From IMG/VR virus record IMGVR_UViG_3300015024_000006, positions 1 to 53,002 of that record: a DNA stretch of 53,002 nt; one strand, given 5' to 3'. Each line of letters opens with the position of its first letter. Position 1 is the stretch's first letter. The notes beneath the pieces are model-generated. The model saw only the letters and a list, made by a program, of their open reading frames with translations, was not told where the DNA came from and ran no database searches. The position numbers and the translations under genes were made by a program. Of this stretch, positions 13,579-44,643 are shown in pieces. The DNA comes from a virus. Its lineage: Duplodnaviria; Caudoviricetes.

Positions 13579-14400
13579 TCACCCTAAGCACCGATTATTA
13601 GTAGTATTCGTGGTCAAATAGTGTCGGAGCTTTCTGATTGCTGCTGCTTCTACCTGTCGGATACGCTCACGTGAGCAACCGTAGGACCGTGCGATGGTGT
13701 CATACGTGGTCACAGTTTGACGCTTGTTCCATCCGTTGCGCTGTGTGATGACGACGCGCTCACGTTCGGAGAGAGACATCAGGGCTGCGTAGAGGGCATC
13801 ATTGTCGATGTCTTGCAACATGCGATCCTCAGTCGAGAGCATGGCGGCTGGCACGGTATCAGCGAGGGTCACATCGTCGCCTCTGCTGTTCTCAGAGACA
13901 CGATCGAGGGAGAGGGGATCGGCTTGGATGTGTTCGACATGACGGCGATCGGTGTCGGTTGCGCTGCCGTCATCACGCCATACCCGCATCGCGGCAGAGT
14001 GGACATAGCCAGGCAGTCGTATGATACGGCTTTCCGTCTCGAATAGCCGCAAGATCCTTTGACGTATCCAGGGATCGGCTACCGTCGTGATGCGGTGTCG
14101 TGTTGTCACATCGTAGCGATTGACAGCGACAATCAAGCCTTCATTACCTGCCATGATCAGATCGAGCAGTTCCACCTTGGCACTCAGGTAGCCTTGCGCG
14201 ATCTTGACGACGTACCGCATGTTGCACTCGATGAGCATGTCACGCGCTACGCTGTCCCCTGCTGCCATACGCACGATGAGCGCACGCTCTGCCGCTGCCG
14301 ACACAGGGATACAGCCGGGGCGCTGCATATCGGTAATGTACGCTCGCAGTGCTGGTGATTGTATGACCTGTGCTGAGTAGACTTCTGTTCGATACCCCAT
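13579..14400 (-). CDS. Sigma70-family (RpoD/RpoS-like) sigma factor
   Basis: Region 2 NMRYVVKIA..Y/DLI.AGNEGL..AV.RYD, region 3 SLD, region 4.2 SRERIRQVE..AIRKLR. Likely start is MGYR at 14400. Confidence 0.9.
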   Translation of the reverse strand: MGYRTEVYSAQVIQSPALRAYITDMQRPGCIPVSAAAERALIVRMAAGDSVARDMLIECNMRYVVKIAQGYLSAKVELLDLIMAGNEGLIVAVNRYDVTTRHRITTVADPWIRQRILRLFETESRIIRLPGYVHSAAMRVWRDDGSATDTDRRHVEHIQADPLSLDRVSENSRGDDVTLADTVPAAMLSTEDRMLQDIDNDALYAALMSLSERERVVITQRNGWNKRQTVTTYDTIARSYGCSRERIRQVEAAAIRKLRHYLTTNTTNNRCLG

Positions 14401-14497
14401 GCCATCCCCCGATGTTCCGCCTACCTGCTGAGAATCAATCCGTAGAAAGTGGCGACGATTGCTGCTAAGATAATCCCTGCGATGATGGTGTAAAGCA

Positions 14498-14839
14498 TCA
14501 TGCTGCCACCTCTTCCATGCAGCGACACACCCAATACGTCGCGCTCTTGCCATGCTCTACGGTGGCACAGGATAGGCATATGTGGCGCTTACAGAGCACA
14601 CAGGTTACGATGGTACGCACAGCCCGATCGCAGATAGCACAGCGCGTATAGGACGTACCGCATGCTGGTGGCAGTGCGGTACTCGTATCGTTCCCAATGA
14701 CACCCCATGCGCGCAATATCCGCATGATGAGGCCCCCCACGATTGCGCCGATCATGCCCAGTAAGAGCAAGAGACCGAAGACGGCGAAGATGACGCCCAA
14801 ATACGTCACGAATAGTCCCAAATAGTCCGTAAATACCAT
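14498..14839 (-). CDS. Membrane-anchored Cys-rich (zinc finger-like) protein
   Basis: Hydrophobic N-terminus and four CxxC-type pairs; AGGGGG RBS before ATG 14839. Confidence 0.6.
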   Translation of the reverse strand: MVFTDYLGLFVTYLGVIFAVFGLLLLLGMIGAIVGGLIMRILRAWGVIGNDTSTALPPACGTSYTRCAICDRAVRTIVTCVLCKRHICLSCATVEHGKSATYWVCRCMEEVAA

Positions 14840-15109: not shown

Positions 15110-17596
15110 TCAGGAAAATGGCGAGGAATCAGAGGAAATGATCCGCAATCCGACCCCATACCAGTACGATCCTCCACGAATACGATCGCGTCTAAACTCG
15201 TGATCTTTGTGTTTCACGCTCAATCCACGATCGGATATTTTTCCTGCTGCAACTTCCCCATGTTCGGTACACCACTGCGTATACGAGTTATAGAGTTGCA
15301 TGGCGAAACAGCCTTGTTCATGTCCAACAATGCAGCATTCTTCTAACCATTGTGCATAGATATCCATCTCAGCACGATAGCTAGCAACCGCTTCTTTCAC
15401 AGCAGGGGGATCGGCAATACCGTCTTTTTGAAAATCCAAGCAGCCAGCTAGCATCCAATTGAAAACGCCGGATAACTCCCCGCGTAATCGTTCGTTATAG
15501 TTTTTATCGGCTGCCGAATCTTCGATATGGTGCAGAAACTGGATACGTTTTAATCGATTCCATATAGCCATATCTGTACCGCGAATCTTGGGCATATGGT
15601 TCGTATCGAGAATCAGCGTATGACTCGGATCGAAGTTGAACATGTTTTCATACTTGCGTTCGCCTACCTGTGTTCCTCCACCAGTCAGATCCTTGACTTT
15701 CGCCTCTGCTAAATAATGTCCCTCTTCCAGTTCCGATGCGATCGCTAGCCGCACGCCTTTTAATTCCGCAATATCGGTATTCATGGTCTTGTTTTCCATG
15801 ACCATGAGTGATTGTGACGGCAGCTTCCCCGCATAGGTGCCCATGACCGCCTTGATGGTCTCAACAAATGTCGTCTTGCCTGTATTGCCGACACCCTCAA
15901 GGATAAAAAGCGCCTTCACATTCGAGAATCCCGTCAACGCATACCCTGCAACACGCTGTAAATACATGACGACCTCTCCCCTATCAGGAAAGAATCGCTC
16001 GAGGTAATCATCCCAGAGTGGTGACGTTGCCGAGGGATCGTACTCGAACGGGCATATCTTCGTGATGTTGTCTGCTTGCCGATGTGGTAACAAATCGCCC
16101 GTTCGTAAATCGATCGTTCCATTCTGACAATTGAGCAACATGGGATCGCGATCGAGGTCGTCAGGACTGACCGAGCATGCGGGTTGTGCTAGGTTGATCA
16201 TCGCTTTGATACGCGGTACGCATGCCGACTGCTTAGCCCACTTGATCATCGCGTCGCGTGCATCCTTATCGGTGATTGCCGCAACCTCGATAAAGATCTT
16301 GCACGCGGTTTCCATTGCCAGCGTCAAGATAATATCGCCTTGATCGATCTTCCAGCGTTGGCCATTCCAGATGAGCCACTTTTTCCAGAGCGTGCAGTAC
16401 CGAATATTCTTGCCGTGCATAGCTATCATGCGTTGGGAGTTGCCAATATCCGTACACGATAATTCGCCTAGAAAAAGCGGTCGCTCTTTCGCGTCTTGCC
16501 CGATGGGTGTAGGTGGCACGTCCTCTGATACGTCCTCAGCCTCATCAGCATCACGATCATCGACAGGATCGCTGTGGTCATGCTGAGGCTGCCGTATGGG
16601 TGTTGGTGGTGCTATCGGCGCTGTGGGGATAATGGGGGCAACCTGCGCACGTATAGGCGTTGGTGTCTGCGATCGGGCGGGATCGCGTGCTGGTGTACGG
16701 TAGACGTTGCGCAGCGTGGCCAGTGCCTCACGATCGGTATACGGCGATTGCGGCGTCGTCACTTGCGCAGCATAGCTGATCATTGCTGACTCTGCCTCGC
16801 TCTGACTTAACTGTGCATCACGTAACATCAGTGAGAGCCAATGGCCCGTATCATTGCGGTTGCCCTCTCTGGCATCACCTACCGCACGGTGTACCCAATA
16901 GTTTGCGTCATCCTGACTGCTCTGTGGCCAGGATGCAAGCGATGCACTCTGCACATATGCGGTTGGCTGTGGCTGTGCTCGTATTGCCGTAAACAAATCG
17001 ATAAATGATAGAGGCAGATCCGCCAGATCATGCGGCATGGCGACGCTATAGCGGCCTAGCAGGTTGCGCGATGGTGGCAGTACGATGTAGCCAAGATCGC
17101 CACGTGTATCGACGCCAGGATATGCCTCTAAGTATTTGCCAAGAGATCCCCCCGTCGCACTGGCGATCGCCACACCTTCGGGATGCCTGAAAATATAGTG
17201 CATGCCGCCACTGCCCGTGGTATGCGTCAACGTCTCTGGCAGGTCGCACGCATCGTGCAGCAATTGCGCGAATGACGCCGCGCTCTCTGGTTTCATATCC
17301 CGATCGATGACGAAACGCCCCGATGTCTGTCCTGTCACGCCGCCAATATTCGCCTGTGGCCATTGTCGCCACCATGCCCTAATCTGCTTCTCGTCAAGCG
17401 TGGCATCATGAAAGCCCTTCGGCGTCTTGGGATGCTTGCCACTCTTGCTCCCGCATGCTGCCCCCTCATTGCAGCTACAGATCCCCGCCGTCGTGATGTA
17501 CTGCACCGGAAATACGGGCCATCCCTGTTGCGCGTAATCAAGCGCAAGTGTTAGTAGCAGTGTGTTATCGTTATTGCGTGATCGTTCCGTCGCCAT
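15110..17596 (-). CDS. Bifunctional primase-polymerase / P4-D5-family SF3 helicase
   Basis: GWPVFP, GKHP, DRD, TGSGGMH, GVDTRG..GYIVLPPS (Prim-Pol); TDIGN (D5_N); Walker A GVGNTGKT; ASE; TNH.P. Confidence 0.95.
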   Translation of the reverse strand: MATERSRNNDNTLLLTLALDYAQQGWPVFPVQYITTAGICSCNEGAACGSKSGKHPKTPKGFHDATLDEKQIRAWWRQWPQANIGGVTGQTSGRFVIDRDMKPESAASFAQLLHDACDLPETLTHTTGSGGMHYIFRHPEGVAIASATGGSLGKYLEAYPGVDTRGDLGYIVLPPSRNLLGRYSVAMPHDLADLPLSFIDLFTAIRAQPQPTAYVQSASLASWPQSSQDDANYWVHRAVGDAREGNRNDTGHWLSLMLRDAQLSQSEAESAMISYAAQVTTPQSPYTDREALATLRNVYRTPARDPARSQTPTPIRAQVAPIIPTAPIAPPTPIRQPQHDHSDPVDDRDADEAEDVSEDVPPTPIGQDAKERPLFLGELSCTDIGNSQRMIAMHGKNIRYCTLWKKWLIWNGQRWKIDQGDIILTLAMETACKIFIEVAAITDKDARDAMIKWAKQSACVPRIKAMINLAQPACSVSPDDLDRDPMLLNCQNGTIDLRTGDLLPHRQADNITKICPFEYDPSATSPLWDDYLERFFPDRGEVVMYLQRVAGYALTGFSNVKALFILEGVGNTGKTTFVETIKAVMGTYAGKLPSQSLMVMENKTMNTDIAELKGVRLAIASELEEGHYLAEAKVKDLTGGGTQVGERKYENMFNFDPSHTLILDTNHMPKIRGTDMAIWNRLKRIQFLHHIEDSAADKNYNERLRGELSGVFNWMLAGCLDFQKDGIADPPAVKEAVASYRAEMDIYAQWLEECCIVGHEQGCFAMQLYNSYTQWCTEHGEVAAGKISDRGLSVKHKDHEFRRDRIRGGSYWYGVGLRIISSDSSPFS

Positions 17597-20206: not shown

Positions 20207-20484
20207 CGCCCTTCTTCCGCTGGCACTGCGTCCCCTCAGAGACCATCTGCTCCCATTGCGAGAATGACAGCCGTTGGGCACGTCCGACCGCATACGCCGT
20301 GCCCACTGGTAAGATCAAGCGCGTGTGGGATGCTTTGCGCATGCGTCAAGTGTCGCAACCTGAGATGGTCAACACTCCCGTATCGGGCGCATGGGTGCTC
20401 TGTGTGAAGTGCATCCCTCCGACGCGCTGGCAAGCATTTTTCACCGAATATGAGCCTGAGCACATCCAACGAAAGGCGGCGTAA
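20203..20484 (+). CDS. Hypothetical protein (two CxxC)
   Basis: ATGA-coupled ORF in the early operon. Confidence 0.6.
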   Translation: MTPFFRWHCVPSETICSHCENDSRWARPTAYAVPTGKIKRVWDALRMRQVSQPEMVNTPVSGAWVLCVKCIPPTRWQAFFTEYEPEHIQRKAA

Positions 20485-20485
20485 C

Positions 20486-21481
20486 ATGCGAGCACTATCA
20501 CTGTGTAGCGGTGTGGGCATGTTGGATCTCGCCGCTGAACAGGCAGGTATTGAGATCGTAGGGCAAGTCGAGATCGATCCGTGGTGTTCGGCGTGTCTCG
20601 CATATCACTGGCCAGGCGTCACGCGCATGACCGACATCAATAAGGTGCAAGGCAATGAATTTGGAGCAATCGACATTCTTTTCGGTGGTATTCCCTGCCA
20701 ACCGTTCAGCAGTTCAGGCAAACAGCGAGGCATGCAAGACGACCGCTACCTCTGGCCAAAGACTCTTGCCATTATTACAACAGCGCGGCCCCGTTGGGTC
20801 GTTATTGAAAATGTTAGCAACTTCCTCCCAATGGTATTCGACACTGTATCGTCTGACATGGAGATGCAAGGCTACGAAGTCGGGGCGGCGTTACTTCCAG
20901 CTTGCGCACTCGATGCGTCACATGTCCGCGAACGTGCCGTCATCGTGGCCCACACCAATAGCCAACAACGCGATCGGTGGCAGGGGCTATCAGGCCGATG
21001 GGACACCCTATCCACACCGACACACGGGATCGACATTGATAGACGCGGTGGGCAAGGCATGGCAAACACCCCTCGCCAGCGATGCGAACGGGATACGCAA
21101 GCCAGATGGCAAGCGCGGCGTGGGGCTGAATACACAGGCGATGTGGGCGACCCCGACCGCGCACGATGCCAAGAACATGAGCATGCCCCCAACGGCAGCG
21201 CTGAGGGAAGACTTGACGGGCGACATGATGCGCTGCGGACAGCAGGGCTATCTCAATCCCGACTGGGTAGAGCAATTGATGGGGCTGCCCGTGGGTTGGA
21301 CCGATATCCCAACCCTGCCTTCCAAGGCGAAATCCAAGCCGTATGGGAAGCGCCCCGCACCGTCTCGCGCCGCAAAGCCAAACATGCCCATCGCCTGAAA
21401 GCACTTGGCAATGGCGTCTACGTTCCGCTTTGGCGTGAGATATTCAGTATCATCTATCAGATAGATCGGGGGATGAAATGA
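20486..21481 (+). CDS. DNA cytosine-5 methyltransferase, alpha polypeptide (lacks motif IX)
   Basis: Motif I LCSGVG, IV PCQPFS, VI ENV, VIII H.RER, X LKALGNGV. Confidence 0.9.
   Translation: MRALSLCSGVGMLDLAAEQAGIEIVGQVEIDPWCSACLAYHWPGVTRMTDINKVQGNEFGAIDILFGGIPCQPFSSSGKQRGMQDDRYLWPKTLAIITTARPRWVVIENVSNFLPMVFDTVSSDMEMQGYEVGAALLPACALDASHVRERAVIVAHTNSQQRDRWQGLSGRWDTLSTPTHGIDIDRRGGQGMANTPRQRCERDTQARWQARRGAEYTGDVGDPDRARCQEHEHAPNGSAEGRLDGRHDALRTAGLSQSRLGRAIDGAARGLDRYPNPAFQGEIQAVWEAPRTVSRRKAKHAHRLKALGNGVYVPLWREIFSIIYQIDRGMK
20655..21398 (+). CDS. C5 methyltransferase beta polypeptide in an overlapping +1 frame (motif IX, W.TP repeats)
   Basis: 247-aa nested ORF containing LNPDWVEQLMGLPVGWTD and WPTP/WQTP/WATP repeats. 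Confidence 0.8.
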   Translation: MNLEQSTFFSVVFPANRSAVQANSEACKTTATSGQRLLPLLQQRGPVGSLLKMLATSSQWYSTLYRLTWRCKATKSGRRYFQLAHSMRHMSANVPSSWPTPIANNAIGGRGYQADGTPYPHRHTGSTLIDAVGKAWQTPLASDANGIRKPDGKRGVGLNTQAMWATPTAHDAKNMSMPPTAALREDLTGDMMRCGQQGYLNPDWVEQLMGLPVGWTDIPTLPSKAKSKPYGKRPAPSRAAKPNMPIA

Positions 21482-23987: not shown

Positions 23988-24015
23988 ATCCCCACAATGC
24001 AGCGATTGTGGGGAT
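23988..24015 (-). terminator. Intrinsic terminator
   Basis: ATCCCCACAAT/ATTGTGGGGAT stem followed by CTCTTTTT on the minus strand. Confidence 0.65.
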
Positions 24016-24345
24016 TGTTCCATGCACCCGAGGGAAGCTCCATAGAAAACACGCATGCCGCATAGGTATAAACCATGCGGCATGAATGCAGAACAATCCT
24101 ACTATTTGATGCACTACGGGGACACACTCAATAATGCTAGTATGCCTGACCTTCTGCGAAAACGCGCACATTCTAGGACTATCGGCTATTTCTTGAGTGG
24201 TCGCTCGATCGGCTCAATCGGGATGATATGTTCTCTGCTATGACCGCAGGGAGAGACGGTATGCTCTCTGCTCTCCTTGGCAGTCAGATGATACAGCGAT
24301 GCGCCATACAACCGACCGCATATGCTACACTTGCAGACTTTGGTT

Positions 24346-24939
24346 TCACCCATTACTCTGCTCTCTTTCCTCAGTATCCCAATTTGGAAGTGGCCCTAGC
24401 GTCTCTGCCATGCGCAACAATTCACTCCCGATGGCTGTCAGGATTTTGCTTTGTATCTCATCAGCGCTCACCCCTTGACGTTGATAGGCACTAATGGCTT
24501 TATAGATCTCGCTACGTATTTGCTCTCCCTCAGCAACCATTTTGTACATATTCCCCTGATGTGTCAAATACTGACTTGCTGTGACGGTCGTGTTGATCTT
24601 TCCATCAAGCTCACTCAACTTCTCAGCAAGCGGGGTGATTTCATCTTGAATCCGCTTTGTCGTCGTGTTGCGTGCTGTTGCCAGTCGCGCATTAACGAGA
24701 GCACGTGTCCATCCTTGCATCGCTGTTTCATTCGGCTGTACTGCTGTTGCTTCCTGTGCATCTGCCTGCCGTTCCAGTGCATCCGCCTGACGACGTGCTA
24801 AATCGGCTTGCTCTTTTTGTTGTACGTCCGCCTTGCGTGACTGATTGACTTCACGTACAAAGGAGGCGACGCCTAATCCACCGCCAATGATGCCAGCGGC
24901 AGATCCTAAGACACCAAACCAGAATGACAGATCAATCAT
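24346..24939 (-). CDS. Single-pass membrane coiled-coil protein
   Basis: N-terminal hydrophobic helix, then a Q/A/E-rich coil. Confidence 0.7.
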   Translation of the reverse strand: MIDLSFWFGVLGSAAGIIGGGLGVASFVREVNQSRKADVQQKEQADLARRQADALERQADAQEATAVQPNETAMQGWTRALVNARLATARNTTTKRIQDEITPLAEKLSELDGKINTTVTASQYLTHQGNMYKMVAEGEQIRSEIYKAISAYQRQGVSADEIQSKILTAIGSELLRMAETLGPLPNWDTEEREQSNG

Positions 24940-24960
24940 AAATATCTTCTCTCTTTGTGT

Positions 24961-25554
24961 TCATTTTCTGCTAGCATACCACGCCACGATCGCCTCTTGC
25001 TGCTCAGCATCCACAGCAATGCGGATTGTCGCACGACCTTGCTTCCATTGTCCTCGATGTGCTGATAGATCCCCGCGAGCGATCGCATAGCGGACCGTGG
25101 TGGATGACACGTTGATCCGACGACAATACGTCTCAATCGCCTCAAAACCATGCGGTAGCGTATCCGTGCCAGAAACCGACGCGCTACGATGCCGCTCACG
25201 TGGCAGTGCTGGCGGTAGGACGTGTGATGCATCATCCTGATAGGTAGCCTCGCCTAGCAACGATTGTACCTCAACCACCTGCGCTTGTAATCGTCGCATC
25301 TCTGCTGTCAACGTGATAATCCGTTGCCATGCGCCCATGAGCGTCGTAGGCAGATCATCTGGCAGTTCGAGGAGCACGATATCATGCAACGCCGCAATGC
25401 GCTGTGCATCCGCAGCCGTGATGTAATGCTTGCGTGCATCGCGTGCCCCCACCTCTTGCCGTATCCCCGCTGCCTCTAACCAGCGGCGCAACGTGCTATC
25501 ATCGATGCCCCCCATTGCCGCTAATAACTCTTGTGTCGTGTATCGCTCTCGCAT
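24961..25554 (-). CDS. MerR-like HTH protein with coiled coil and second HTH-like domain
   Basis: YTTQEL...GIDDSTLRRW at the N-terminus; C-terminal NVSSTTVRYAI..G. Confidence 0.65.
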   Translation of the reverse strand: MRERYTTQELLAAMGGIDDSTLRRWLEAAGIRQEVGARDARKHYITAADAQRIAALHDIVLLELPDDLPTTLMGAWQRIITLTAEMRRLQAQVVEVQSLLGEATYQDDASHVLPPALPRERHRSASVSGTDTLPHGFEAIETYCRRINVSSTTVRYAIARGDLSAHRGQWKQGRATIRIAVDAEQQEAIVAWYASRK

Positions 25555-25568
25555 GCCGCCCCCTGTCA

Positions 25569-25724
25569 CTCCGAATAACCCCGATACATAGCATAACACC
25601 CCGATCAATCATCCTGAGTCGGAAGACATCGGAAGATACTCATCCGTATCATTCCGAATTGCCACTAAACCATCAGACGGTATCGGAATGTATCGGAATG
25701 AATCGCCCTGGTATCTTCCGATGT
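25569..25724. repeat. Array of TCGG(A/G) motifs including a 14-bp perfect inverted repeat
   Basis: ACATCGGAAGATAC 25626-25639 / GTATCTTCCGATGT 25711-25724; TATCGGAATG x2 at 25681-25700; further copies at ~25570-25660. Confidence 0.75.
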
Positions 25725-25749
25725 TGCCTAATATTCCTTACAAAATGTC

Positions 25750-25778
25750 TTGACATCGTTAAACTATGCCGTTATAAT
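25750..25778 (+). promoter_or_regulatory. Perfect consensus sigma70 promoter of the recombinase operon
   Basis: TTGACA-17-TATAAT. Confidence 0.85.
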
Positions 25779-25787
25779 CGTGTGTAG

Positions 25788-25821
25788 TCATGCCACACTA
25801 ATACCTGTTAGTGTGGCATGA
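25788..25821. other. 34-bp loxP-like site (13-8-13)
   Basis: TCATGCCACACTA-ATACCTGT-TAGTGTGGCATGA: perfect arms, asymmetric core, 635 bp upstream of a tyrosine recombinase. Confidence 0.6.
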
Positions 25822-25840
25822 AAGAGAGGGAACCATATCT

Positions 25841-26431
25841 ATGCACAATCTCGTATCGCAGCGAACGTGTCCTCGGTGTCAATGGTCTCATCACGAAAGT
25901 GAGACATCCTGTCATTGGTGCAATTACAACATGATTGCTGGTACCACCGCCGCCGATCGGCGTCATGCCAAGCAGCCTAACTTCTATCTCGTGCGCCCAA
26001 CACCTACCAGTTTGCCGATCGTCACTGGCACGTTGTTACGGGCGGTCGATCGCACAATGGGATTACCGCCATCCTTAGCAGGTGATCCCGCGACCAGCCG
26101 CGCTATGTCGCTCCGTGATGCGTGGCATGGGATCAATGCGCTCGTCGCAGCTGGCGTTTTCTGCCGATGGGAGATACGCGATCTGATGTCCTCATGCCGC
26201 ATTTTGGGCGATCCATCACTTCCTTATTATGCAGTCATCGAAGCACAGTATATGGACATGCACGACAATAAGCAGATGTGCATGATCGCATGGACACGTT
26301 ATCTTGCAAAGGTCCACCCCGTACGCTACCAACGCCTCATGAATGAAGAGGCACACTGGATGATCATTACGACCACGTGGCTCGATATCAAAATCGAGGC
26401 AGCGCACCTGATGACAAAGGTTACCAAATGA
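25841..26431 (+). CDS. Hypothetical protein with N-terminal zinc ribbon
   Basis: CPRC..CHWC; GAGAGGG RBS before ATG 25841. Confidence 0.65.
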   Translation: MHNLVSQRTCPRCQWSHHESETSCHWCNYNMIAGTTAADRRHAKQPNFYLVRPTPTSLPIVTGTLLRAVDRTMGLPPSLAGDPATSRAMSLRDAWHGINALVAAGVFCRWEIRDLMSSCRILGDPSLPYYAVIEAQYMDMHDNKQMCMIAWTRYLAKVHPVRYQRLMNEEAHWMIITTTWLDIKIEAAHLMTKVTK

Positions 26432-26455
26432 AAGAAGACACGTAAAGGACACCAC

Positions 26456-27460
26456 ATGCAAACGATTATCGACAGCACGTCCACAATGGACCTCTCAGCA
26501 ATCAGCGATGGCCTTAGTATGCCATCGCTGATTGAAGCCTTTGCGCAATCCAAGTACAAACGTAGTCGATCCGACCGTACCCGATCGACGTATCGAGAGA
26601 CGATGCAATCCTTCCGTGCATTCGTGGATGGCATCGGCGGCGATCTCGATAGCGACCCGAAGATCATTACCGCATTCGCCGCTGATTGGGCGATGATCAG
26701 CGGCGACAAAGGAGAGCCAAGCGCAGCCACGTTTTCGCAGCGTCTGGCGATCGTCTCCTCCTTCTATGCGTTTTGTATCCGGCGCGGCTACCTGCCGACC
26801 TATACCAGTAATCCCATATCCGCGATCGATCGCGCACCCGTGCAATCGTACCGCGCCGCGACATACCTACCGACTGAGACCGTACAGAGCGTCTTGCAAC
26901 GCATCGATCGCAGCACTCAAAAAGGCATGCGGGATTATGTCTTGCTCTGCCTGGGATTAGAGACGGCACGCCGTGTCACAGAGATTGCTAACCTCACGAT
27001 CGGCGATCTGCTCATGACCGGCGATCGGATGGTTGTGCAATGGCAACGTACAAAAGGCGGTAAACGGGCTGAGGATGAGTTGGAGCCGACCCTCGCACAC
27101 AACATGCGGTCGTACTGTTACGCCGCGCATGGTCCCGCATGGCGATCGCAGCCGCAATCACCGCTGTGGATCTCGTTCCAGCCTGGAACAAAACGGCGAT
27201 TTGGGCGCGATGGTATTACCGCAATTTGCTTGCAATATTTTGGTACGGGCAAAGTCCACACGCTGCGTCACACGACGGCAAAGACGATGGAAGATCAAGG
27301 CGCATCGCTCACACAAATCCAGCACAAGCTCGGACATGAGAGCGTCGCCACCACCGCACGCTATCTCACCCAGGTGAAAAAAGCACACAACCCATACGCT
27401 GGCCAGTTAGCAACCGTATTCGGTTTCACAGAAGTAGAAGTAGAGGTAGAAGCACCATGA
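26456..27460 (+). CDS. Tyrosine recombinase (Xer/Cre-like, no obvious arm-binding domain)
   Basis: RD...R..E (box I), TKGGK, HTLRH, LGH.....T..Y catalytic residues all present. Confidence 0.95.
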   Translation: MQTIIDSTSTMDLSAISDGLSMPSLIEAFAQSKYKRSRSDRTRSTYRETMQSFRAFVDGIGGDLDSDPKIITAFAADWAMISGDKGEPSAATFSQRLAIVSSFYAFCIRRGYLPTYTSNPISAIDRAPVQSYRAATYLPTETVQSVLQRIDRSTQKGMRDYVLLCLGLETARRVTEIANLTIGDLLMTGDRMVVQWQRTKGGKRAEDELEPTLAHNMRSYCYAAHGPAWRSQPQSPLWISFQPGTKRRFGRDGITAICLQYFGTGKVHTLRHTTAKTMEDQGASLTQIQHKLGHESVATTARYLTQVKKAHNPYAGQLATVFGFTEVEVEVEAP

Positions 27461-27762
27461 GTGATACTGACATCGATCAACCTGACAGCAAAGAATGGTT
27501 CCTGCAACCACCGCCAAAATTATCACCATTGAGCAACGAATACCAACCGATCGCCTCGTACAGCCATAGCCCGTCACGTCGATCGCTGGAGAAGATCGTG
27601 CGTATTGCGGTGTCGGCTGCATTCCGTAAAAAGCTCACACATCCGATCGTCGATCCCCCCGCCATGTACACCGCACTCGATATCATCTATATCTGTTCGA
27701 TTGCTGGTAGCGTCATCCTGACATTGATCGTCTTGCTGGCCATAGCCATTGCCCGCCAATAG
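27457..27762 (+). CDS. Small C-terminally anchored membrane protein
   Basis: ATGA-coupled to the recombinase; C-terminal hydrophobic helix. Confidence 0.6.
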   Translation: MSDTDIDQPDSKEWFLQPPPKLSPLSNEYQPIASYSHSPSRRSLEKIVRIAVSAAFRKKLTHPIVDPPAMYTALDIIYICSIAGSVILTLIVLLAIAIARQ

Positions 27763-27905
27763 TCCTGCTCCGTTGCGTCGTGTGCTGTTGTCAGGCATAC
27801 TAGCAGGGCACGATGTCTTGCTAGCGGCGGGAATCATGCACAGAGCGACCGTACCGAGGTGTAGTTACCTTAGTACGGTCTCTTGTTATCATGGCGGTAT
27901 GATCG

Positions 27906-28259
27906 CTAGGTATTGCGGAATAATCCGATCTCGCTAGTATAGTCCATATCCTGTATCGGTATGGACTCGTTATCGTCGTGAAAGTGCGCCACATAGCGCC
28001 CGTCCGCATCTTGCATGATGGTGAATAATCCATCATTCCATCGTTGCAGCAGGAAAACCCATGCTGCTTTTGTTGGCATCTGCTCAGCAGGAAAATCACC
28101 AGGCGTAATCATCTTCTCTTGCTCTCTCAATACACGCTCGTGCTGTTTCTTGGCTGCCGCTACCAGTGCGTCGCGTCGCTGCGCGGGACTGAGTAGCCGT
28201 ATCCAGTGGTACTCAGCTTCGGTCATGTCGCCGAGCCGTACAGCTTTCTTGGGTTTCAT
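27906..28259 (-). CDS. Hypothetical protein
   Basis: GAGGA RBS, 117 aa. Confidence 0.65.
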   Translation of the reverse strand: MKPKKAVRLGDMTEAEYHWIRLLSPAQRRDALVAAAKKQHERVLREQEKMITPGDFPAEQMPTKAAWVFLLQRWNDGLFTIMQDADGRYVAHFHDDNESIPIQDMDYTSEIGLFRNT

Positions 28260-28288
28260 GTTATCCTCTCTTCGGATCGACGTGGTGC

Positions 28289-28882
28289 CTATGAAATCTG
28301 TGATGCTTTTTCACAAATGGATTGTAGCGCCTCTTCTACGGTGATCACGTGCTGATTCGGTTTTGGTGTGAAGAGTACCCACTCTTCGGCGTCATCATCG
28401 GTACGACCTTGCATCAGCGACCACTCATAGCCGTATTGTTTCAAGAGACGATTCTGCACGAAGATCGCCTGACGTTGTGCCTCACGTCGCTTCTTATCGG
28501 CATAGCGTCGATCGATCTCGTCATGCTGTGCCTTCACATGCGCCGCCTGAATTGCCGCGCCATTAATGGCGGGTGCTTCGACTGTTGGCACCTTTGGTAG
28601 TCGCTCAGGATTGATAACCCACCCAGCTAACAAGTGTAAGTTCACAGGTGTGATGTAAAGGTTAGATACCTCACCCTCTCCGTACTGATTGAAGCTGCCG
28701 ATCGCGTTGTCGAGAATGCGAACACTTGGTATGCTGCTCCGACCTTTGCGTACTGGCGTAACATCAATACCGATCTCCTTGAAGAATGCGTTTGCTGCGT
28801 CGGATGTTTCAATACCTGTGATACCCAACGCTTTCAGGACCGTATCCTGTGCCACTGTTGTTGAAAATGACTTATACCGCAT
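28289..28882 (-). CDS. Hypothetical protein
   Basis: 197 aa with RBS, downstream of a clear promoter. Confidence 0.7.
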   Translation of the reverse strand: MRYKSFSTTVAQDTVLKALGITGIETSDAANAFFKEIGIDVTPVRKGRSSIPSVRILDNAIGSFNQYGEGEVSNLYITPVNLHLLAGWVINPERLPKVPTVEAPAINGAAIQAAHVKAQHDEIDRRYADKKRREAQRQAIFVQNRLLKQYGYEWSLMQGRTDDDAEEWVLFTPKPNQHVITVEEALQSICEKASQIS

Positions 28883-30290: not shown

Positions 30291-30497
30291 CTATTCTCCT
30301 ATGATTTCTGCAAGCGGTGTCTCGATTCCATGCGTGCGTAGTTGTGCCTGTGCTTCCCACAACTTTTCACGTATTGCGAGGTAGTCCCTGCGCTCAACTT
30401 GAAACGCACGACGCCAGGGTTGTAGATGGATAGCCGCAAAGAAGCCAGCAGAGAACGATGGACCGCATACTAGGACGACGATAAGCAAGGTACTCAT
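30291..30497 (-). CDS. Small membrane protein
   Basis: Hydrophobic N-terminus, coupled start. Confidence 0.55.
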   Translation of the reverse strand: MSTLLIVVLVCGPSFSAGFFAAIHLQPWRRAFQVERRDYLAIREKLWEAQAQLRTHGIETPLAEIIGE

Positions 30498-30967
30498 GAT
30501 GGTTTCCTCTCTTGTTCGCGCTCAGCCTTGATTGCCTCATACGCATGATTAAGGCGATGCATGCGTTCCGTTCCTGCCTCTTTGCCGATGATGTCAGGAT
30601 GCACCATCTTTGCAAGTGCTCTGTAGACGGCGTGTACGACTTCGATCGGCGCTGTCTCGCGCAAGTGCATGGCGGCATACGGGCTGTTATGTGAAAGGAA
30701 CTGCAATGGCGGCGGCTGTGGAGGTGGTGGTCCTCTGCGTTGCGGTGTGTGTCCTACTGTTCGGCATATGTCTTGCCAGTTCTCAGCAATACCATCAAGA
30801 CTATCCAAGGTCTCGTTATCAATCCACCAGATATCATGCTGCTTCAAATAGCGGCTGTGCTTCTCAGGTCGCACGCCAAAGATGCGCCGCCCTTCGGTTT
30901 TGGGGCGTAGATTGATGAGCCAACCACCATAGCGCCCCGCTGAATGGCGTAGTTCAGCGATTTTCAT
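30494..30967 (-). CDS. J-domain (DnaJ-like) protein
   Basis: C-terminal PY..........VYRALAKMVHPD.......M..LN.AY J-domain. Confidence 0.85.
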   Translation of the reverse strand: MKIAELRHSAGRYGGWLINLRPKTEGRRIFGVRPEKHSRYLKQHDIWWIDNETLDSLDGIAENWQDICRTVGHTPQRRGPPPPQPPPLQFLSHNSPYAAMHLRETAPIEVVHAVYRALAKMVHPDIIGKEAGTERMHRLNHAYEAIKAEREQERKPS

Positions 30968-33348: not shown

Positions 33349-33382
33349 AAGAGGTTATTGCCGCTATCAGCAATAACCTCTT
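33349..33382. terminator. Bidirectional intrinsic terminator
   Basis: AAGAGGTTATTGC/GCAATAACCTCTT stem between convergent genes. Confidence 0.75.
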
Positions 33383-33807: not shown

Positions 33808-33836
33808 AGGGGAGCTAACAATCCATTAGCTCCCCT
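33808..33836. terminator. Hairpin
   Basis: AGGGGAGCTAA/TTAGCTCCCCT stem. Confidence 0.6.
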
Positions 33837-37218: not shown

Positions 37219-38100
37219 ATGACCATCATTACCGCATCGGAGAACAAAAAAGGCGGCGTCGGCAGAACCACCACCGCGATTAATTTGGGGACGATCCTTG
37301 CATCCGTGTATGGAGAGCGCGTCTTGCTCATTGACTGGGACGCCGATCGCTGCCTCACAGATGGCCTTGCGGGTGGTGCCTTCGATGCCCATGCCGCCAA
37401 TCGTCTCAATATTCTCGATTGCATGGCTGATAGTAAGAATGGTTTCGATAGCGCCGTCGTACCATTCCCCATCGCACGCTACACAGAGGCAGCACACCAC
37501 ATGGCGACACTGATCGATGTGCCTTGGCAATCGGGAGGCAGTGTCGATATCATCACCGGATCGGAGGATCTGTCCGAGGCACCCGAACGCTTTACCACGA
37601 TCCGCCAGCCTGTCGCCACCTTTGAACAATCGCTTCATTGGATGTTGCGTCAACCCGACGTGACCGATCGGTGGGATCGGGTGATTCTCGACATCGGCCC
37701 TGGCTGGGACATCACGGCGAAAACCGCATTGTTTGCCGCTGATGAGGCAATCATTCCTGTTGAACCTGCTTCACTCTCGATCGAGGCGTTCAAGCGTCAC
37801 AACTTGCGTATCAGCCGAGGCAACACGGAACGGAAACGGGCGGGACTGCCAGGCCAAACCGTCATCAAAGGTGTGTTCGTTTCGCGCATCTCCCTCGCGT
37901 CGCCAGTGCATCAGCATTTTGCTGCTGGTATTCGTCAGATGTTGGCCAGTGGGAATATCCGCTGTTTCGACACGATGATCCCTAACAGTGACGCGATCCT
38001 CGCCGCCATGAGTAACCATACACCGGCATGGGGGCAATACCCCGATGATGAAGGGGCACAAGCGTACGCCTATCTCGCAAAGGAAGTGAAAGCATCATGA
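37219..38100 (+). CDS. parA: ParA/Soj-family ATPase
   Basis: KGGVGRTT, VLLIDWD, VILDIGP, AADEAIIPV. Confidence 0.9.
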   Translation: MTIITASENKKGGVGRTTTAINLGTILASVYGERVLLIDWDADRCLTDGLAGGAFDAHAANRLNILDCMADSKNGFDSAVVPFPIARYTEAAHHMATLIDVPWQSGGSVDIITGSEDLSEAPERFTTIRQPVATFEQSLHWMLRQPDVTDRWDRVILDIGPGWDITAKTALFAADEAIIPVEPASLSIEAFKRHNLRISRGNTERKRAGLPGQTVIKGVFVSRISLASPVHQHFAAGIRQMLASGNIRCFDTMIPNSDAILAAMSNHTPAWGQYPDDEGAQAYAYLAKEVKAS

Positions 38101-39359
38101 CGATCAATCCACATGACGATCTCACACTGACTGATGATCTCTTCAAGCTCGAGGGAGCAAAGCCTGTCATGGGCACTGATATCGTCATGACGACGATGAC
38201 CGGCATCACGGAACGGTCGATGGTGATGGGCGCTGCCGTCACTCCTATTACGCAAGTGAACGGCGTTCCTATCGGCAGAGCGGTCGGAACGTTACTCATG
38301 GTCTATGTGGCGCAATTACGTTTACCAGAGGACACAGTCCGACGTGGCTATGATCCGAATACGGATGAGACGTTCGACACGTTGCGGATCAGCATCGAAC
38401 AAACCGATCGATGTAATCTTGATCCGTTACTCTGTGAAGTAACGGATGAGATGATCGACGTAGAAGGGATCGCCCGTCCGATCGTCCTGGTACGATCAGG
38501 CACCCGTCGCTATCACGTATTGACGCAGATCGGCGCATCAGAAGCACTGATCCGCGTGTTGCCACGTGACGCAGATGCACGAATCGTAACGTTGATCTCC
38601 TTGATCGCCAATGAAATGCGTGAACCATTACCCGTGCTCGATCAGGCCGATATCATCGCCATGATGATTGATGAGTACGGATTGAAGCAGCAGGTCATCG
38701 CGCAACATGCGGGCTACTCGCAATCCAAGGTATCGCGCCTGTGGACGATCAGCAAACAACCCCCACTCATCAAAACATATGTCTCCAATGAAAGCATCGA
38801 CTTTGCCACCGTAGAAGCGCTCAATAAACGGTTCAAAGAGGATGTCCAACAACGCGAATTAGCTGCACGGTATATCGTGCAAGAAGGGGGATCGATCGGC
38901 GTCAATGATCTCGCGAACCAGATCGCCCCCCCACCAGGAATCGCCGTCACAGGACGATTAGAGATGCGTGGCGATCTCGTGCATCTCCTCCCAATGGGAC
39001 TAGCAGCAAGCAAGAATAGCGCATTGCGCTTAGTGAGCGATCGGAAAGATAAACCAGAGGAGCCGATCCACTATTGGAAGCGTGGCGCTCCTATTAAAGC
39101 CGATCCGACGCGCATCTTGAAACAACACCATGCGGTCATCGTGCAAGGCACATTCGAGGCACCGACGATCGGCGTCAAATCCTTGCACATCACCCAACTG
39201 CTGAAGATGATAAAAGGTAGTGAGATGGTCGATATGGCGGCATTGGAGGAGGCGATGCTCAGCGACCTACAAGCCATCCAGGAAGGCATAGATGCGATGC
39301 CACCGCCAGCAGAGACAGAGGATGCAGAGGGGGTGATTGTAGACGCAGTAGCAAACTAG
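38097..39359 (+). CDS. parB: ParB/Spo0J-family protein
   Basis: SGTRR (GxxR), N..RE.L, HTH QQVIAQHAGYSQSKVSR; coupled to parA. Confidence 0.85.
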   Translation: MTINPHDDLTLTDDLFKLEGAKPVMGTDIVMTTMTGITERSMVMGAAVTPITQVNGVPIGRAVGTLLMVYVAQLRLPEDTVRRGYDPNTDETFDTLRISIEQTDRCNLDPLLCEVTDEMIDVEGIARPIVLVRSGTRRYHVLTQIGASEALIRVLPRDADARIVTLISLIANEMREPLPVLDQADIIAMMIDEYGLKQQVIAQHAGYSQSKVSRLWTISKQPPLIKTYVSNESIDFATVEALNKRFKEDVQQRELAARYIVQEGGSIGVNDLANQIAPPPGIAVTGRLEMRGDLVHLLPMGLAASKNSALRLVSDRKDKPEEPIHYWKRGAPIKADPTRILKQHHAVIVQGTFEAPTIGVKSLHITQLLKMIKGSEMVDMAALEEAMLSDLQAIQEGIDAMPPPAETEDAEGVIVDAVAN

Positions 39360-40070: not shown

Positions 40071-40361
40071 TCAGAATTGCGACGGCTTGACGAAAAAACT
40101 GCCCTCGGTCGCGGCGATAAACGCGCCCGTCGTCTCGAAACGGTAGTAGTAATAGCCCTGCTGTGCTGCCAGGATATCGACATAGTATTTACCAGTGGCA
40201 CTCTGTATCAAGGCAGCATCCACGCCATACACCAGCGATGTCGCCACGCCGCTCTGATTGCGGTATCGACACGTGACGGCGCTCACAGCGATGTCTACGG
40301 TGCCATTCGTGAACTCAGCAGAGATCCGTACGAGGGATGTTTTGTCATAGCTGTTGGTCAT
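40071..40361 (-). CDS. Small Ig/BppU-like structural protein
   Basis: Beta-rich, G.YY.D......G.Y.YRF pattern; last late gene. Confidence 0.55.
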   Translation of the reverse strand: MTNSYDKTSLVRISAEFTNGTVDIAVSAVTCRYRNQSGVATSLVYGVDAALIQSATGKYYVDILAAQQGYYYYRFETTGAFIAATEGSFFVKPSQF

Positions 40362-42205
40362 GCAATTGCTCCTAAGCTATCTAATATGGTCATCACGACT
40401 GCCGCGCTATCGGAGAGTAGGCAGATCGCGTTCGTTGGTGCATCGGAGATCAGGCACATCACCGCATTGGTAGGCGCATCGCTCACGATACACACGATCG
40501 GCTGTGTCATTGCCGATAGGGGCAGTGTTGCGGGTATGGCTCTGCGCTGAATCGTGAGCAAAGGAACAGCAGCGGGGATCGTGCGTGTGGGCGTCGTCAG
40601 AAAAGAGAGCGGCATCGCGGCTGCCACGATGCGCATGTTTGTGGACTGCACCGGCAGTACCGCGCCGATCGTGCGTGTTGCTATCGCCAGTACAGGCAGT
40701 GATGCACCAACCACGCGGCTATTCGTCGCCATAATGGGCAATGCGGCTGGAACGATGCGTGCTGCCGTGCCAAGCATCGGCAGTGCTGCTGGTACCGATC
40801 GCTGCCGCATTGACTGCAATGGGACAGCGGCAGGAACGGTGCGTGTTGCTGTTGTCAATATAGGCATTGATGCTGGTACATTGCGCGTCGCGGTCGCAAA
40901 GAGCGGCAGAGCGGCAGGGACAGCACGGCTTGACGTGGCCAAGAGCGGCATCGCTGAAGGAATGGACCGCGTGAGTGATCCCGCCAGAGCGAGCGGCATC
41001 GCAGCGGACAGCACACGGCTATTCGTCGCAACTACGGGCATCGATGCTGGTACATTCCGCATTGCGGTCGCTAACAGCGGCAGAACAGCGGGGATAGTGC
41101 GGCTAGTGGTTAGCAAGAGCGGCAGAGCAGCCGCTAGCGATCGCGTGGATGTCGCCAGTACAGGCATGCTAGCAGGTATTGATCGCGTGGAGGTTTTCAA
41201 GAGCGGCATCGCTGCGCCGATGCTTCGGCTATTCGTGCTGAGTAGGGGCAGAGCAGCAGGGATAGATCGCGTACTAGTAATGAGTAGTGGCACTGATGCT
41301 GGTATAGATCGCGTATTCGTTGCGAGTAGTGGCACTGTCCCTGGAACGTTGCGCGTCAAAGTACTCAGTAGCGGGGAGCTCGCAGGGACAGATCGCGTGG
41401 CGGTACTGAGCATCGGCATCGATGCTGGTATATTGCGCGTGGTAGTTGCGAGTAGCGGGAAACTAGCAGGAATAGATCGCGTGGTGGTTTTCAGCAGCGG
41501 CATTGATGCTACTATGTTACGTGTAGAGGTAGCTAAGATCGGCAGCGCCGCTAGGACATTGCGAATAGAGGTAGCCAACAGCGGCAGAGATGCAGGTATT
41601 ATTCTGTTAGGAGCATAGCCAGGCGTGACCACCTGCGAGGTATTGCTACCAGTGGTGACGCCCGATCCTTCGTTCCACACCATTGTCGCCGCGCCGCTCG
41701 CAGAGCCATTGGTCGTGATGTTGAGCCAGATATCGATGTAGAGCTTATCGCCTGTGACGAAATTGGCTGATGACAGACTGACCGCAGTAGCCGTATACGT
41801 GGCACTGACCGTGGTAAACGCCTGCGCAGCGAGATTGTTACTCCCAATGAGCGTATAGACACCAGCATTATATTTATAAAAGCGCGTGATGATATCGGCG
41901 GTCGCGGTGCCGACGCTGATATGCCCTCGCTGGGTGCTCTGCCAGTTGCCAGCGATGATCTGCTGCCCTTCCATCGCAGTCACATCGTAGAGCCACCCAT
42001 GCCCCGAGGGAGCACCCAAACTGCCAGCACCCGCCCATGCGGTAGCCGTCCCAGGGGCATAGATTTCGCCGTAGCCCGTGGATGTGCCAACCAGTATCGT
42101 CTTATTGGTGCTAGTGCCAGCACCCGCGACGATGATCTGATTCGCCGTGGCTATGGTGGTTGCTGCCGTATTAGTGAGGTACGCGGTCAGTGCAATTGCG
42201 GTCAT
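40358..42205 (-). CDS. Putative virion fibre/ruler protein with 26 x 14-aa repeats
   Basis: N-terminal domain paralogous to 45646..48564; repeats R-[S/N/T]-[I/V]-P-A-[A/S]-[L/M/V]-P-L-L-x-T-x-x. Confidence 0.8.
   Translation of the reverse strand: MTAIALTAYLTNTAATTIATANQIIVAGAGTSTNKTILVGTSTGYGEIYAPGTATAWAGAGSLGAPSGHGWLYDVTAMEGQQIIAGNWQSTQRGHISVGTATADIITRFYKYNAGVYTLIGSNNLAAQAFTTVSATYTATAVSLSSANFVTGDKLYIDIWLNITTNGSASGAATMVWNEGSGVTTGSNTSQVVTPGYAPNRIIPASLPLLATSIRNVLAALPILATSTRNIVASMPLLKTTTRSIPASFPLLATTTRNIPASMPMLSTATRSVPASSPLLSTLTRNVPGTVPLLATNTRSIPASVPLLITSTRSIPAALPLLSTNSRSIGAAMPLLKTSTRSIPASMPVLATSTRSLAAALPLLLTTSRTIPAVLPLLATAMRNVPASMPVVATNSRVLSAAMPLALAGSLTRSIPSAMPLLATSSRAVPAALPLFATATRNVPASMPILTTATRTVPAAVPLQSMRQRSVPAALPMLGTAARIVPAALPIMATNSRVVGASLPVLAIATRTIGAVLPVQSTNMRIVAAAMPLSFLTTPTRTIPAAVPLLTIQRRAIPATLPLSAMTQPIVCIVSDAPTNAVMCLISDAPTNAICLLSDSAAVVMTILDSLGAIA
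40502..41605 (-). repeat. Degenerate 42-bp coding tandem repeat, 26 units
   Basis: 368 codons = 24 x 14 aa + 2 x 16 aa, counted from the translation. Confidence 0.9.
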
Positions 42206-42207
42206 GC

Positions 42208-42642: not shown

Positions 42643-42689
42643 CGGGTGGTATCCCTTCTCTCGCATGGTATTGCGTTCTCAGTCAGCGA

Positions 42690-43208: not shown

Positions 43209-43231
43209 TACAATGTTCCTGCTTTCCTTTT

Positions 43232-43636: not shown

Positions 43637-43647
43637 AATAGCCTCCT

Positions 43648-44631: not shown

Positions 44632-44643
44632 GATGTCTAGCCC

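Follow-up and report, generated by a model that had tools for sequence, protein, structure and literature searches.

What does a perfect 34-bp inverted repeat do at the head of a phage operon that encodes a tyrosine recombinase? The question is raised by a tailed-phage genome (IMG/VR record IMGVR_UViG_3300015024_000006), the whole 53,002-nucleotide stretch of which was analysed and is called here the window. The features concerned are the following.

25750-25778, + strand: sigma-70-type consensus promoter of the recombinase operon (12/12 hexamer matches)
25788-25821, no strand: predicted recombinase-binding and strand-exchange core site and operator (from arm complementarity, sites in relatives and single copy)
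25841-26431, + strand: first operon gene, a 196-aa ORFan whose translation has an N-terminal CxxC...CxxC zinc-ribbon-like stretch
26456-27460, + strand: second operon gene, an Xer-like tyrosine recombinase of 334 aa (from PF00589, alignments and predicted structure)
27457-27762, + strand: probable third operon gene, an ORF of 101 aa that overlaps the recombinase stop with its start and matches no family

The repeat, TCATGCCACACTAATACCTGTTAGTGTGGCATGA (25788-25821), consists of two 14-nt arms, 25788-25801 and 25808-25821, that are 100% complementary and flank the asymmetric 6-nt centre TACCTG (25802-25807). The first-pass annotation had proposed a 13-8-13 site with an asymmetric core. This arrangement is contained within the repeat and the asymmetry is real, but the outer A and T of the claimed 8-bp core are complementary, so that only the inner 6 bp are asymmetric and the repeat is best read as 14-6-14, dif-like with its 6-bp centre; a 6-bp stagger fits either parse of the 34 bp, the loxP-type one included. 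By arithmetic, 53 kb should contain about 2e-4 perfect pairs of 14-nt arms at a single fixed spacing. Since the window holds further perfect hairpin-type repeats (26499-26534, 33349-33382 and others), the repeat by itself proves little, and it is because of the comparative data from related loci that we regard it as more than chance. The full 34-bp site is single-copy in the record, and half-site matches with at most 2 mismatches number 8 in the window against 4.4 expected, a count reached by 5 of 100 shuffles. An inversion or excision switch within the phage was ruled out, as a second site is absent.

The promoter is made up of TTGACA (25750-25755) and TATAAT (25773-25778) with a 17-nt spacer, the sole 12/12 match in 24000-28500. 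Its predicted +1 lies near 25785, which places the 34-bp site at roughly +3 to +37, and the earlier statement that the site sits just past the +1 of a consensus promoter is borne out by a repeat that begins about 3 nt after the predicted start. Downstream of the repeat come a purine-rich ribosome-binding stretch and the ATG at 25841. The promoter also heads the recombinase operon as had been described, with one addition, namely the 196-aa ORFan between the site and the recombinase gene. This protein matches no Pfam, PHROG or NCBIfam family above cut-off; its homologues form only 3 clusters, all at least 64% identical, and its ESM Atlas leads are zinc-ribbon, all below 0.9. Because the site covers about +3 to +37 of the operon's own promoter, a dimer bound there should block RNA polymerase, which would amount to negative autoregulation.

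A repeat that lies wholly downstream of the predicted start would also be transcribed as a whole, and its predicted RNA fold is stable (-24.4 kcal/mol, z -4.1), in a phage that is rich in perfect hairpins. These observations fit another reading, in which the repeat acts as a stem-loop at the 5' end of the operon mRNA, making the message more stable or adjusting its translation, and the symmetry of the DNA is a by-product. Rfam matches in the window number 0, as do tRNAs, which counts against an RNA element and rules out a known RNA family as the identity of the repeat. An intrinsic terminator was likewise ruled out, as a T run is absent 3' of the repeat on either strand; the bases that follow are AAGAGAGGG, and the absence of a U-tract recorded at first pass was confirmed.

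The recombinase belongs to the tyrosine recombinase superfamily (62.8 bits against Pfam PF00589, cut-off 27.1, E 4.5e-17) and is the only PF00589 gene product of the record. It has two domains, SAM-like core-binding and catalytic, and its residues R173, K200, H268, R271, H294 and Y303 are unchanged across all 14 aligned sequences. The solved structures nearest to it by sequence are XerA and XerD, and its top NCBIfam models are XerC, XerD and XerA. We place it outside the Xer equivalog families, because all of its scores are far under the equivalog cut-offs (XerC 83.8 bits against 335, XerD 83.7 against 330, XerA 77.7 against 220, XerS 61.3 against 267). The AF2 model (pLDDT 79.7) aligns over its full length with Cre-loxP, IntI4 and XerH complexes at a TM of about 0.6; with Cre-loxP complexes, the top structural matches give TM 0.57-0.64 at 16-20% identity. 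The proposal of a Cre-like enzyme thus stands for the fold, which matches Cre-DNA complexes, but not for the sequence, which is Xer-like, and Cre is absent from the 15 sequence-profile matches (E <= 1e-3); kinship to Cre is one of fold only. After residues 1-18, which are modelled with low confidence, the SAM-like core-binding and catalytic domains follow directly, and a search for a lambda-type N-terminal arm-binding domain gave no family match. The recombinase is Xer-like by sequence and has the Cre/Xer two-domain fold without an arm-binding domain.

Related loci carry most of the argument. The comparison set comprised 51 loci with recombinases 33-45% identical to that of the window, from Chloroflexota genomes, phages and metagenomes, and these were scanned, over the 1 kb upstream of each gene, for 11-6-11 repeats that have AA/TT inner ends and pair at 8/11 or more arm positions. 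Relatives at 95% and 61% identity are also known. Such a repeat was found at 29 of the 51 loci, while 22 had no site upstream at this threshold. The scan gave 30 matches in the 46.4 kb upstream of the 51 genes against 11 in 340 kb elsewhere in the same loci, a 20-fold difference in density, and shuffles yielded 1.6 on average and never more than 6. In 7 relatives the arms are perfect over 11 bp and the spacer is 6 bp. Twenty-eight sites were tabulated, with the exclusion of L058 and L065 (arms unlike the family), the second match of L134, L010 (7-bp spacer) and L054 (site 1970 bp upstream); the counts are slightly inflated by L070/L145 and L005/L006, which are duplicates or near-duplicates. 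The 11-6-11 layout is kept in all 28, and the arms of the window site are longer, at 14 bp. At the half-site positions left free by the scan, C occurs in 42/56 and T in 50/56, so that the sites read CTAA-N6-TTAG. The window site and its relatives therefore have the dif-type layout of two half-sites of about 11 bp around a centre of 6-8 bp. These sites were reached by alignment-based scans; BLAST of 24300-28000 matched none of 50,697 phage records, viral contigs searched for the exact pattern of both arms gave 0 matches and a single-protein peptide scan of viral contigs gave nothing.

What the loci share besides the site is the recombinase, the sole protein family common to 12 site-bearing loci. 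Homologues of the window's neighbouring ORFs, among them the 196-aa ORFan, are absent from the related loci, and the ORFan and the divergent helix-turn-helix (HTH) protein described below were rejected as the conserved binder of the site, neither having a homologue in any related locus. The earlier claim that site and recombinase form a cognate pair is supported by these data, that is, by the 29 loci with a site and by the recombinase as the only shared protein. Moreover, 12 of the 28 sites abut or overlap a promoter, defined as a hexamer pair with at least 10/12 matches that ends from 3 nt inside to 12 nt before the left arm, where about 0.35 would be expected by arithmetic. Sites of relatives thus adjoin strong promoters, in support of the suggestion that such a placement allows autorepression.

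The same comparison weighs against the RNA reading. In 9 relatives, 7 of which match both hexamers at 10/12 or better, the -10-like hexamer ends between 1 nt short of the left arm and 3 nt into it, so that the transcript would start within the arm. In four further loci (L069, L070, L145 and L146, where L070 and L145 encode identical recombinases) the -10-like hexamer lies just downstream of the site, which is then upstream of the -10. The 47 arm mismatches (14 G:T, 8 A:C, 25 neither) have no G:U bias. Finally, the partly conserved spacer ends C...A are polar in 17 sites, 13 forward and 4 flipped relative to the gene, the window's own spacer being one of the 4 flipped ones. We consider a function in the transcript very improbable.

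Palindromic operators over the +1 are common, and in many relatives the site falls on the promoter or around the start; the repeat could then be solely an operator, for the recombinase acting as a repressor or for another dimeric regulator, with no strand exchange at all. We find this unlikely. The 6-bp asymmetric centre and the conserved TAA/TTA correspond to the dif layout (PMC5357621), and the catalytic residues are invariant in all 14 sequences, so that selection maintains the enzyme's ability to recombine. The recombinase has no further candidate site linked to it, no conserved palindrome was found within the 5' end of its gene in relatives, and no second regulator is common to the loci.

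The reading that we prefer, at a probability of about 0.55, is that the Xer-like recombinase has the palindrome beside its operon genes as its cognate core site and that the two constitute a self-repressing multimer-resolution module of a phage-plasmid. The anatomy of the locus and the conserved linkage of site, gene and promoter are read directly from the sequences, and from them we infer binding, cleavage positions, repression and the role in resolution. As in the family in general, each 14-bp arm would take one recombinase monomer, Tyr303 would cleave at both edges of the 6-bp centre, and synapsis of two sites would lead to strand exchange via a Holliday junction. The role that appears most likely is the resolution of multimers of the plasmid prophage, possibly together with cyclisation of incoming DNA. 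It rests on further features of the window, given here with two elements that flank the site.

15110-17596, - strand: Prim-Pol / D5_N primase-helicase (phrog_1156 4e-144; PF09250, PF08706)
24961-25608, - strand: divergent ORF of 215 aa whose C-terminus weakly matches an HTH_17 / excisionase-type helix-turn-helix
25619-25721, 4 boxes on + and 2 on -: six TCGGAA(G/T) boxes that precede the core by 67-170 bp and are candidates for accessory or regulatory sites
37219-38100, + strand: ParA-type partition ATPase (phrog_164 7.8e-33; PF13614 3.6e-21, above cut-off)
38097-39359, + strand: ParB-type partition protein (ParB-like PHROGs to 3e-9; PF17762 HTH_ParB 33 bits, cut-off 22.6)

The start of ParB overlaps the stop of ParA, and a search near parAB gave no clear parS-like repeat. 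The Prim-Pol/D5 protein is the phage's own replication protein and provides a context for plasmid-like maintenance. Virion genes (terminase, portal, major head, tape-measure), ParA/ParB and Prim-Pol/D5 occur together on one replicon, and judged by its genes this glacier phage looks able to live as a plasmid. Multimer resolution is most likely because ParA/ParB, an own Prim-Pol/D5 replicase, one recombinase and one site are found together. In addition, sites next to chromosomal homologues were examined in three host genomes, and in 3/3 the intact site is single-copy (<=3 mismatches). Such sites are not what attL/attR pairs would give and, with ParA/ParB, favour resolution.

They bear on a further alternative, in which the enzyme is an arm-less integrase, the palindrome is the attP core and a host site shares its 6-bp centre; the HTH protein and the TCGGAA boxes would be a directionality factor and its sites, and through its overlap with the promoter the site would tie int expression to its own state. 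An attP beside int is the usual phage layout. The neighbouring HTH protein is weakly excisionase-like (PF12728 E 1.5e-4 and TIGR01764 E 3e-3, both below cut-off; Cox-like E 1e-3). The boxes form tandem pairs 10 bp apart, with 6 of the 10 matches of the window inside these 103 bp and an imperfect 32-nt inverted repeat (25626-25657 / 25693-25724) at the cluster, and the HTH protein is a candidate for their binder. A protein and boxes of this kind beside the core fit an attP with a directionality factor. None of the 5 related viral records has a ParA homologue or a ParB above cut-off; one of them is complete with terminal repeats and has the recombinase as its sole PF00589 gene, and another is classed as provirus, so that the enzyme could act as an integrase in the family at large. 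Arm distance follows recombinase distance (Mantel r 0.24, p 0.02), so that the arms track the recombinase tree, whereas spacer distance does not (r 0.05, p 0.29), and spacers differ at 4/6 positions between recombinases that are 97% identical; stable arms and fast-changing spacers are what target switching of an attachment site would give. Lastly, PDB 5vfz, an arm-less integrase of mycobacteriophage Brujita, is among the sequence matches of the recombinase. Like Brujita-type integrases, the recombinase is a small phage enzyme that lacks an arm-binding domain and has a simple site of core type, but the 5vfz match (E 9e-6) is much weaker than the Xer matches and the phage studied here has partition genes.

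That partition cassette, with the phage's own replicase, is also the first point against integration. An integrated element should leave two hybrid sites and not the single intact palindromes seen in the three host genomes. Among the features listed for the contigs of four metagenome runs, no joint or loose end lies at the site, and the missing junctions are weak evidence because contigs drop rare forms and a further 16 loose ends and 249 differences lie outside that list. The idea that the core might be found as a host attB was not borne out, 401 sampled Chloroflexota genomes having yielded no near-identical site and only matches of 16-21 nt (E >= 0.008), none over the centre, in a test of low power because a typical attB is too diverged to detect. 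Moreover, perfect arm symmetry would be unusual for an attP core obliged to resemble host sequence. On balance, we judge the integrase reading rather unlikely.

Multimers are resolved by XerS/difSL for streptococcal chromosomes and by Cre/loxP for P1, where a two-domain recombinase acts on a 34-bp site, single-copy near its gene, in a phage with plasmid-type partition genes. The pair described here resembles Cre/loxP in the 34-bp length, perfectly symmetric arms, asymmetric centre, single site near the gene and partition genes; it differs in that the repeat is 14-6-14 instead of 13-8-13 and lies on the operon's own promoter. In dif, two 11-bp half-sites flank a 6-bp centre where cutting and exchange take place (PMC5357621), and the conserved 11-6-11 part of our family has this geometry of XerCD/dif and XerA/dif. 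Xer/dif systems resolve replicon dimers, the chromosomal ones upon activation by FtsK. Unlike XerCD, however, which consists of two enzymes with different arms, a single enzyme faces identical arms; unlike both systems, the pair is on a mobile element and not at a chromosome terminus, and its scores of 78-84 bits are far from the XerC, XerD and XerA cut-offs of 220-335. In streptococci and lactococci, the XerS gene adjoins its own dif-like site, difSL, as a single module (PMC5357621, PMC2731167), and one Xer-like recombinase beside its dif-like site is also what the phage has (NCBIfam XerS E 6e-17). The difSL site has unequal, imperfect arms and an 11-bp centre (PMC5357621), in contrast to the perfect 14-bp arms and 6-bp centre of the phage site. 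XerS is chromosomal and FtsK-controlled (PMC2965235), whereas our module is phage-borne, at 61 bits against the XerS cut-off of 267. TnpI/IRS of Tn4430 comes close in another respect: its core is a pair of perfectly symmetric inverted motifs of 14 bp, cut with a 6-bp stagger, and repeated accessory motifs on one side contain the 9-bp recognition sequence of the core and are bound by TnpI (PMC2847244). The phage site likewise has symmetric 14-bp arms and repeated motifs on one flank, but the TCGGAA(G/T) boxes do not resemble the CTAA-ending half-site, the IRS spacer is 4 bp and not 6 bp, and the window has no transposase.

The pair is probably a further example of the Cre/lox and Xer/dif kind; a narrow search found no published account of such a system in Chloroflexota phages or phage-plasmids, and one may be in print. 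If the main reading is true, this Chloroflexota phage of glacier and ice habitats would combine plasmid-type lysogeny with its own multimer resolution, and it would offer a clear example in which the site of a tyrosine recombinase also serves as operator for the enzyme's own promoter. Should the prediction hold, the pair would be a compact recombinase with a defined, perfectly symmetric 34-bp site, plausible as a genome-engineering tool, and more than 20 related enzymes, whose predicted cognate sites vary in both arms and centre, might serve orthogonal engineering. A wider view is possible, although we lean towards doubting it: the loci might represent an uncharacterised family of recombinase/site cassettes, self-contained and self-repressing, that are carried by mobile elements of Chloroflexota and in which the arms co-diverge with the enzyme and the centre changes faster under diversifying selection. 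Such selection would keep co-resident elements from recombining with each other, and the family would amount to a natural collection of over 20 lox-like systems, each orthogonal to the others, whose enzyme dosage would also depend on how far the site is occupied. Within the window's own site, the only variant among those listed for the four metagenome runs is 25807 G>C, in the spacer.

The 34 bp upstream of the tyrosine recombinase gene had been described in the first-pass annotation as a 13-8-13 site. The stretch itself stands, but each arm was drawn one base short, and the repeat is 14-6-14. The consensus promoter claimed just before it is present, with a 12/12 hexamer match, and the reported lack of a U-tract also holds, the repeat having no T run after it.

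Recombinase operon and DNA methyltransferase gene in the window
20450-21481, DNA methyltransferase
25750-25778, promoter (TTGACA, 17 nt, TATAAT)
25788-25821, site, TCATGCCACACTAATACCTGTTAGTGTGGCATGA, with perfectly complementary 14-nt arms flanking the 6-nt centre TACCTG
25841-26431, ORFan, 196 aa
26456-27460, tyrosine recombinase
overlapping the recombinase stop, 101-aa ORF

Since the promoter ends 9 nt 5' of the repeat, the repeat spans roughly +3 to +37; a ribosome-binding stretch lies 3' of it, followed by the ORFan, for which only three homologue clusters were found anywhere.

The recombinase matches PF00589, a SAM-like N-domain and integrase PHROGs, and R173, K200, H268, R271, H294 and Y303 are invariant in all 14 aligned sequences. 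Its family profile matched XerA, XerD, IntI4 and XerH among solved structures, and Cre was absent among these matches. The top NCBIfam models were XerC, XerD and XerA, every score being far under the cut-off. The AlphaFold model (pLDDT 79.7) is a plain two-domain clamp, alignable along its whole length to Cre-loxP complexes, IntI4 and XerH (TM about 0.6), and the protein has no arm-binding domain.

In protein searches, the recombinase had one cluster of relatives with 95% identity, another with 61% and a dozen more with 36-45%. Alignment-based scans covered 51 related loci (10 viral, 26 metagenome and 15 genome contigs; product match E <= 1e-29, 32-45% identity in the best segment), a set lying outside the 95% and 61% relatives. 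All 15 genome contigs belong to Chloroflexota (Chloroflexia, Ktedonobacteria, Thermomicrobiales, Oscillochloris). In seven relatives, the region upstream of the recombinase gene has 11-bp arms that pair perfectly around a 6-bp spacer. With at least 8/11 arm pairs and AA/TT inner ends as the criterion, a match lay within 1 kb upstream of the gene in 29/51 loci; 30 matches fell in 46.4 kb of upstream sequence versus 11 in the other 340 kb, and shuffled upstream regions averaged 1.6 matches and reached 6 at most. The 28 curated sites (L058, L065, the second L134 match, L010 and L054 dropped; duplicates or near-duplicates such as L070/L145 and L005/L006 kept) have the half-site consensus ACTACAACTAA. 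The bases 5' of the imposed AA are C in 42/56 and T in 50/56 half-sites, which gives a conserved core CTAA-N6-TTAG. One Oscillochloris genome holds two paralogous recombinase/site pairs (L146 and L148), each single-copy and differing in arms and centres, which look like naturally coexisting and presumably orthogonal pairs. In the viral locus L004, some 950 nt on from the match start and ~80 bp past the recombinase gene end, there is a further perfect 14-6-14 repeat; this record carries a second PF00589 gene.

Which protein might the site belong to? In the 12 site-bearing loci examined, the recombinase was the only protein family common to all, the remaining shared clusters being shadow frames over its gene; the ORFan, the HTH protein encoded divergently (24961-25608, minus strand) and the other window neighbours had no homologue in any related locus. 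Arm distance tracks the recombinase tree (Mantel r 0.24, p 0.02), whereas spacer distance showed no correlation with it (r 0.05, p 0.29). Between L069 and L070, whose recombinases are 97% identical, the arms differ at one position and the centres at 4/6. Across the 51 loci, site density away from the recombinase gene was at shuffle level; thus, a general host regulator is unlikely to be the binding protein.

The repeat might also act as an RNA hairpin: in the window it lies wholly inside the predicted transcript and folds at -24.4 kcal/mol (z -4.1). For 12/28 sites, a hexamer pair with a match of 10/12 or better has its end in the stretch from 12 nt before the left arm to 3 nt inside it. When weaker pairs are included, nine relatives have a -10 whose end lies from 1 nt before the arm to 3 nt inside it, so that the transcription start would fall within the arm. 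In four loci (L069, L070, L145 and L146; the recombinases of two are identical), a -10-like hexamer stands directly 3' of the site, which would then stay untranscribed. Arm mismatches (n=47: 14 G:T, 8 A:C, 25 other) are without wobble bias. The spacer ends are partly conserved, as C...A at 13 sites and as the reverse complement T...G at 4, the window included; site polarity is therefore independent of transcription direction. Taken together, promoter positions, mismatches and spacer ends argue that promoter overlap, rather than presence in RNA, is what is conserved, and hence for a protein-bound DNA site that would serve as an operator.

Perfect palindromes are abundant in this phage. A second one, unrelated in sequence to the site (26499-26534, 14-nt arms, 8 nt between), lies in the recombinase gene at codons 15-27; the relatives' recombinase genes have no counterpart, and 26533 T>C in strain variants breaks an outer pair of it. 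Possible roles are an RNA hairpin that influences translation and a site for some other protein. Intergenic gaps contain more hairpin repeats, perfect or nearly so (33349-33382, which has a 13-8-13 layout, 33808-33836, 23988-24015 and 24054-24084), and these look like terminators.

The record (53,002 bases, completeness estimated at 95%) encodes on its minus strand terminase, portal, head-morphogenesis, major head and tape-measure proteins. The tape-measure gene terminates near the window start (region 1-2651), and more large minus-strand ORFs lie at the other end (40358-53002), one with a tail-fibre family match and one running off the end. This continuation makes the gene order look circularly permuted and suggests a nearly complete, circularly permuted genome, the record itself being classed as linear. 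Prim-Pol/D5 primase-helicase, sigma factor, Erf-type annealing protein and DNA methyltransferase are also encoded, as are adjacent ParA and ParB genes; taken with the virion genes, these make it a tailed phage that carries plasmid-type partition genes. The phage's own sigma-70-family factor and DnaJ-domain protein lie at 13579-14553 and 30494-30967. Near-identical sequence occurs in runs from 8 studies, whose label, where there is one, is glacier or ice metagenome.

We propose that the recombinase would resolve multimers at the site and repress its own operon, a functional reading to which we give a probability of roughly 0.55. Partition genes, an own replicase, one PF00589 gene and one copy of the site in the record speak for resolution. 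So do two findings from relatives: chromosomal homologues have intact single-copy sites next to them, once in an 11.3-Mb Chloroflexia chromosome and twice in the Oscillochloris genome, and in 3/51 loci ParA-like genes lie no more than 5 kb from the recombinase. Among the listed features of contigs from four metagenome runs, no joint at the site was found, which also fits resolution; the sole listed variant within the site in these runs, 25807 G>C, falls in its centre. An integrase lacking arm binding and serving phage integration is the less probable explanation, and we consider it unlikely. Integration is favoured by ParA or ParB above cut-off in 0/5 related viral records (one complete, one a provirus), by the weak excisionase-type HTH protein encoded beside the operon, and by six TCGGAA(G/T) boxes 67-170 bp from the core.

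These boxes form a cluster (25619-25721) between the HTH gene and the recombinase promoter, where 6 of the 10 TCGGAA(G/T)(A/G) boxes of the window fall within 103 bp, in tandem pairs 10 bp apart inside an imperfect 32-nt inverted repeat. Loci L004, L079 and L139 have their own repeated boxes near the core, differing from the window's. In L069, a ParA-like gene directly follows the recombinase, and in the clade of L069, L070, L145 and L146 the site is about 650 bp upstream of the recombinase gene.

Seeking lox-like sites as inverted repeats beside recombinase genes is an established approach; what this pair adds is predicted cognate sites for an entire family, together with a site-on-promoter design that is conserved. 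Nearest in logic to the phage pair are XerS/difSL, Cre/loxP of P1 and TnpI/IRS of Tn4430. As the recombinase stays under the Xer equivalogs' curated cut-offs and has no sequence-level link to Cre, it would work like these systems without membership in them. In the relevant passages of PMC5357621, XerS gene and difSL site form one module, and dif has 11-bp half-sites on either side of a 6-bp centre, the place of strand cutting; the CTAA-N6-TTAG sites share this 11-6-11 layout. The part of PMC2847244 on TnpI/IRS describes 14-bp core motifs that are perfectly symmetric, a stagger of 6 bp and one-sided accessory repeats. CGATCG-type strings appeared common in the window by eye, and GCGATCGC occurs 11 times against 3.1 expected, a count reached in 0/100 shuffles.
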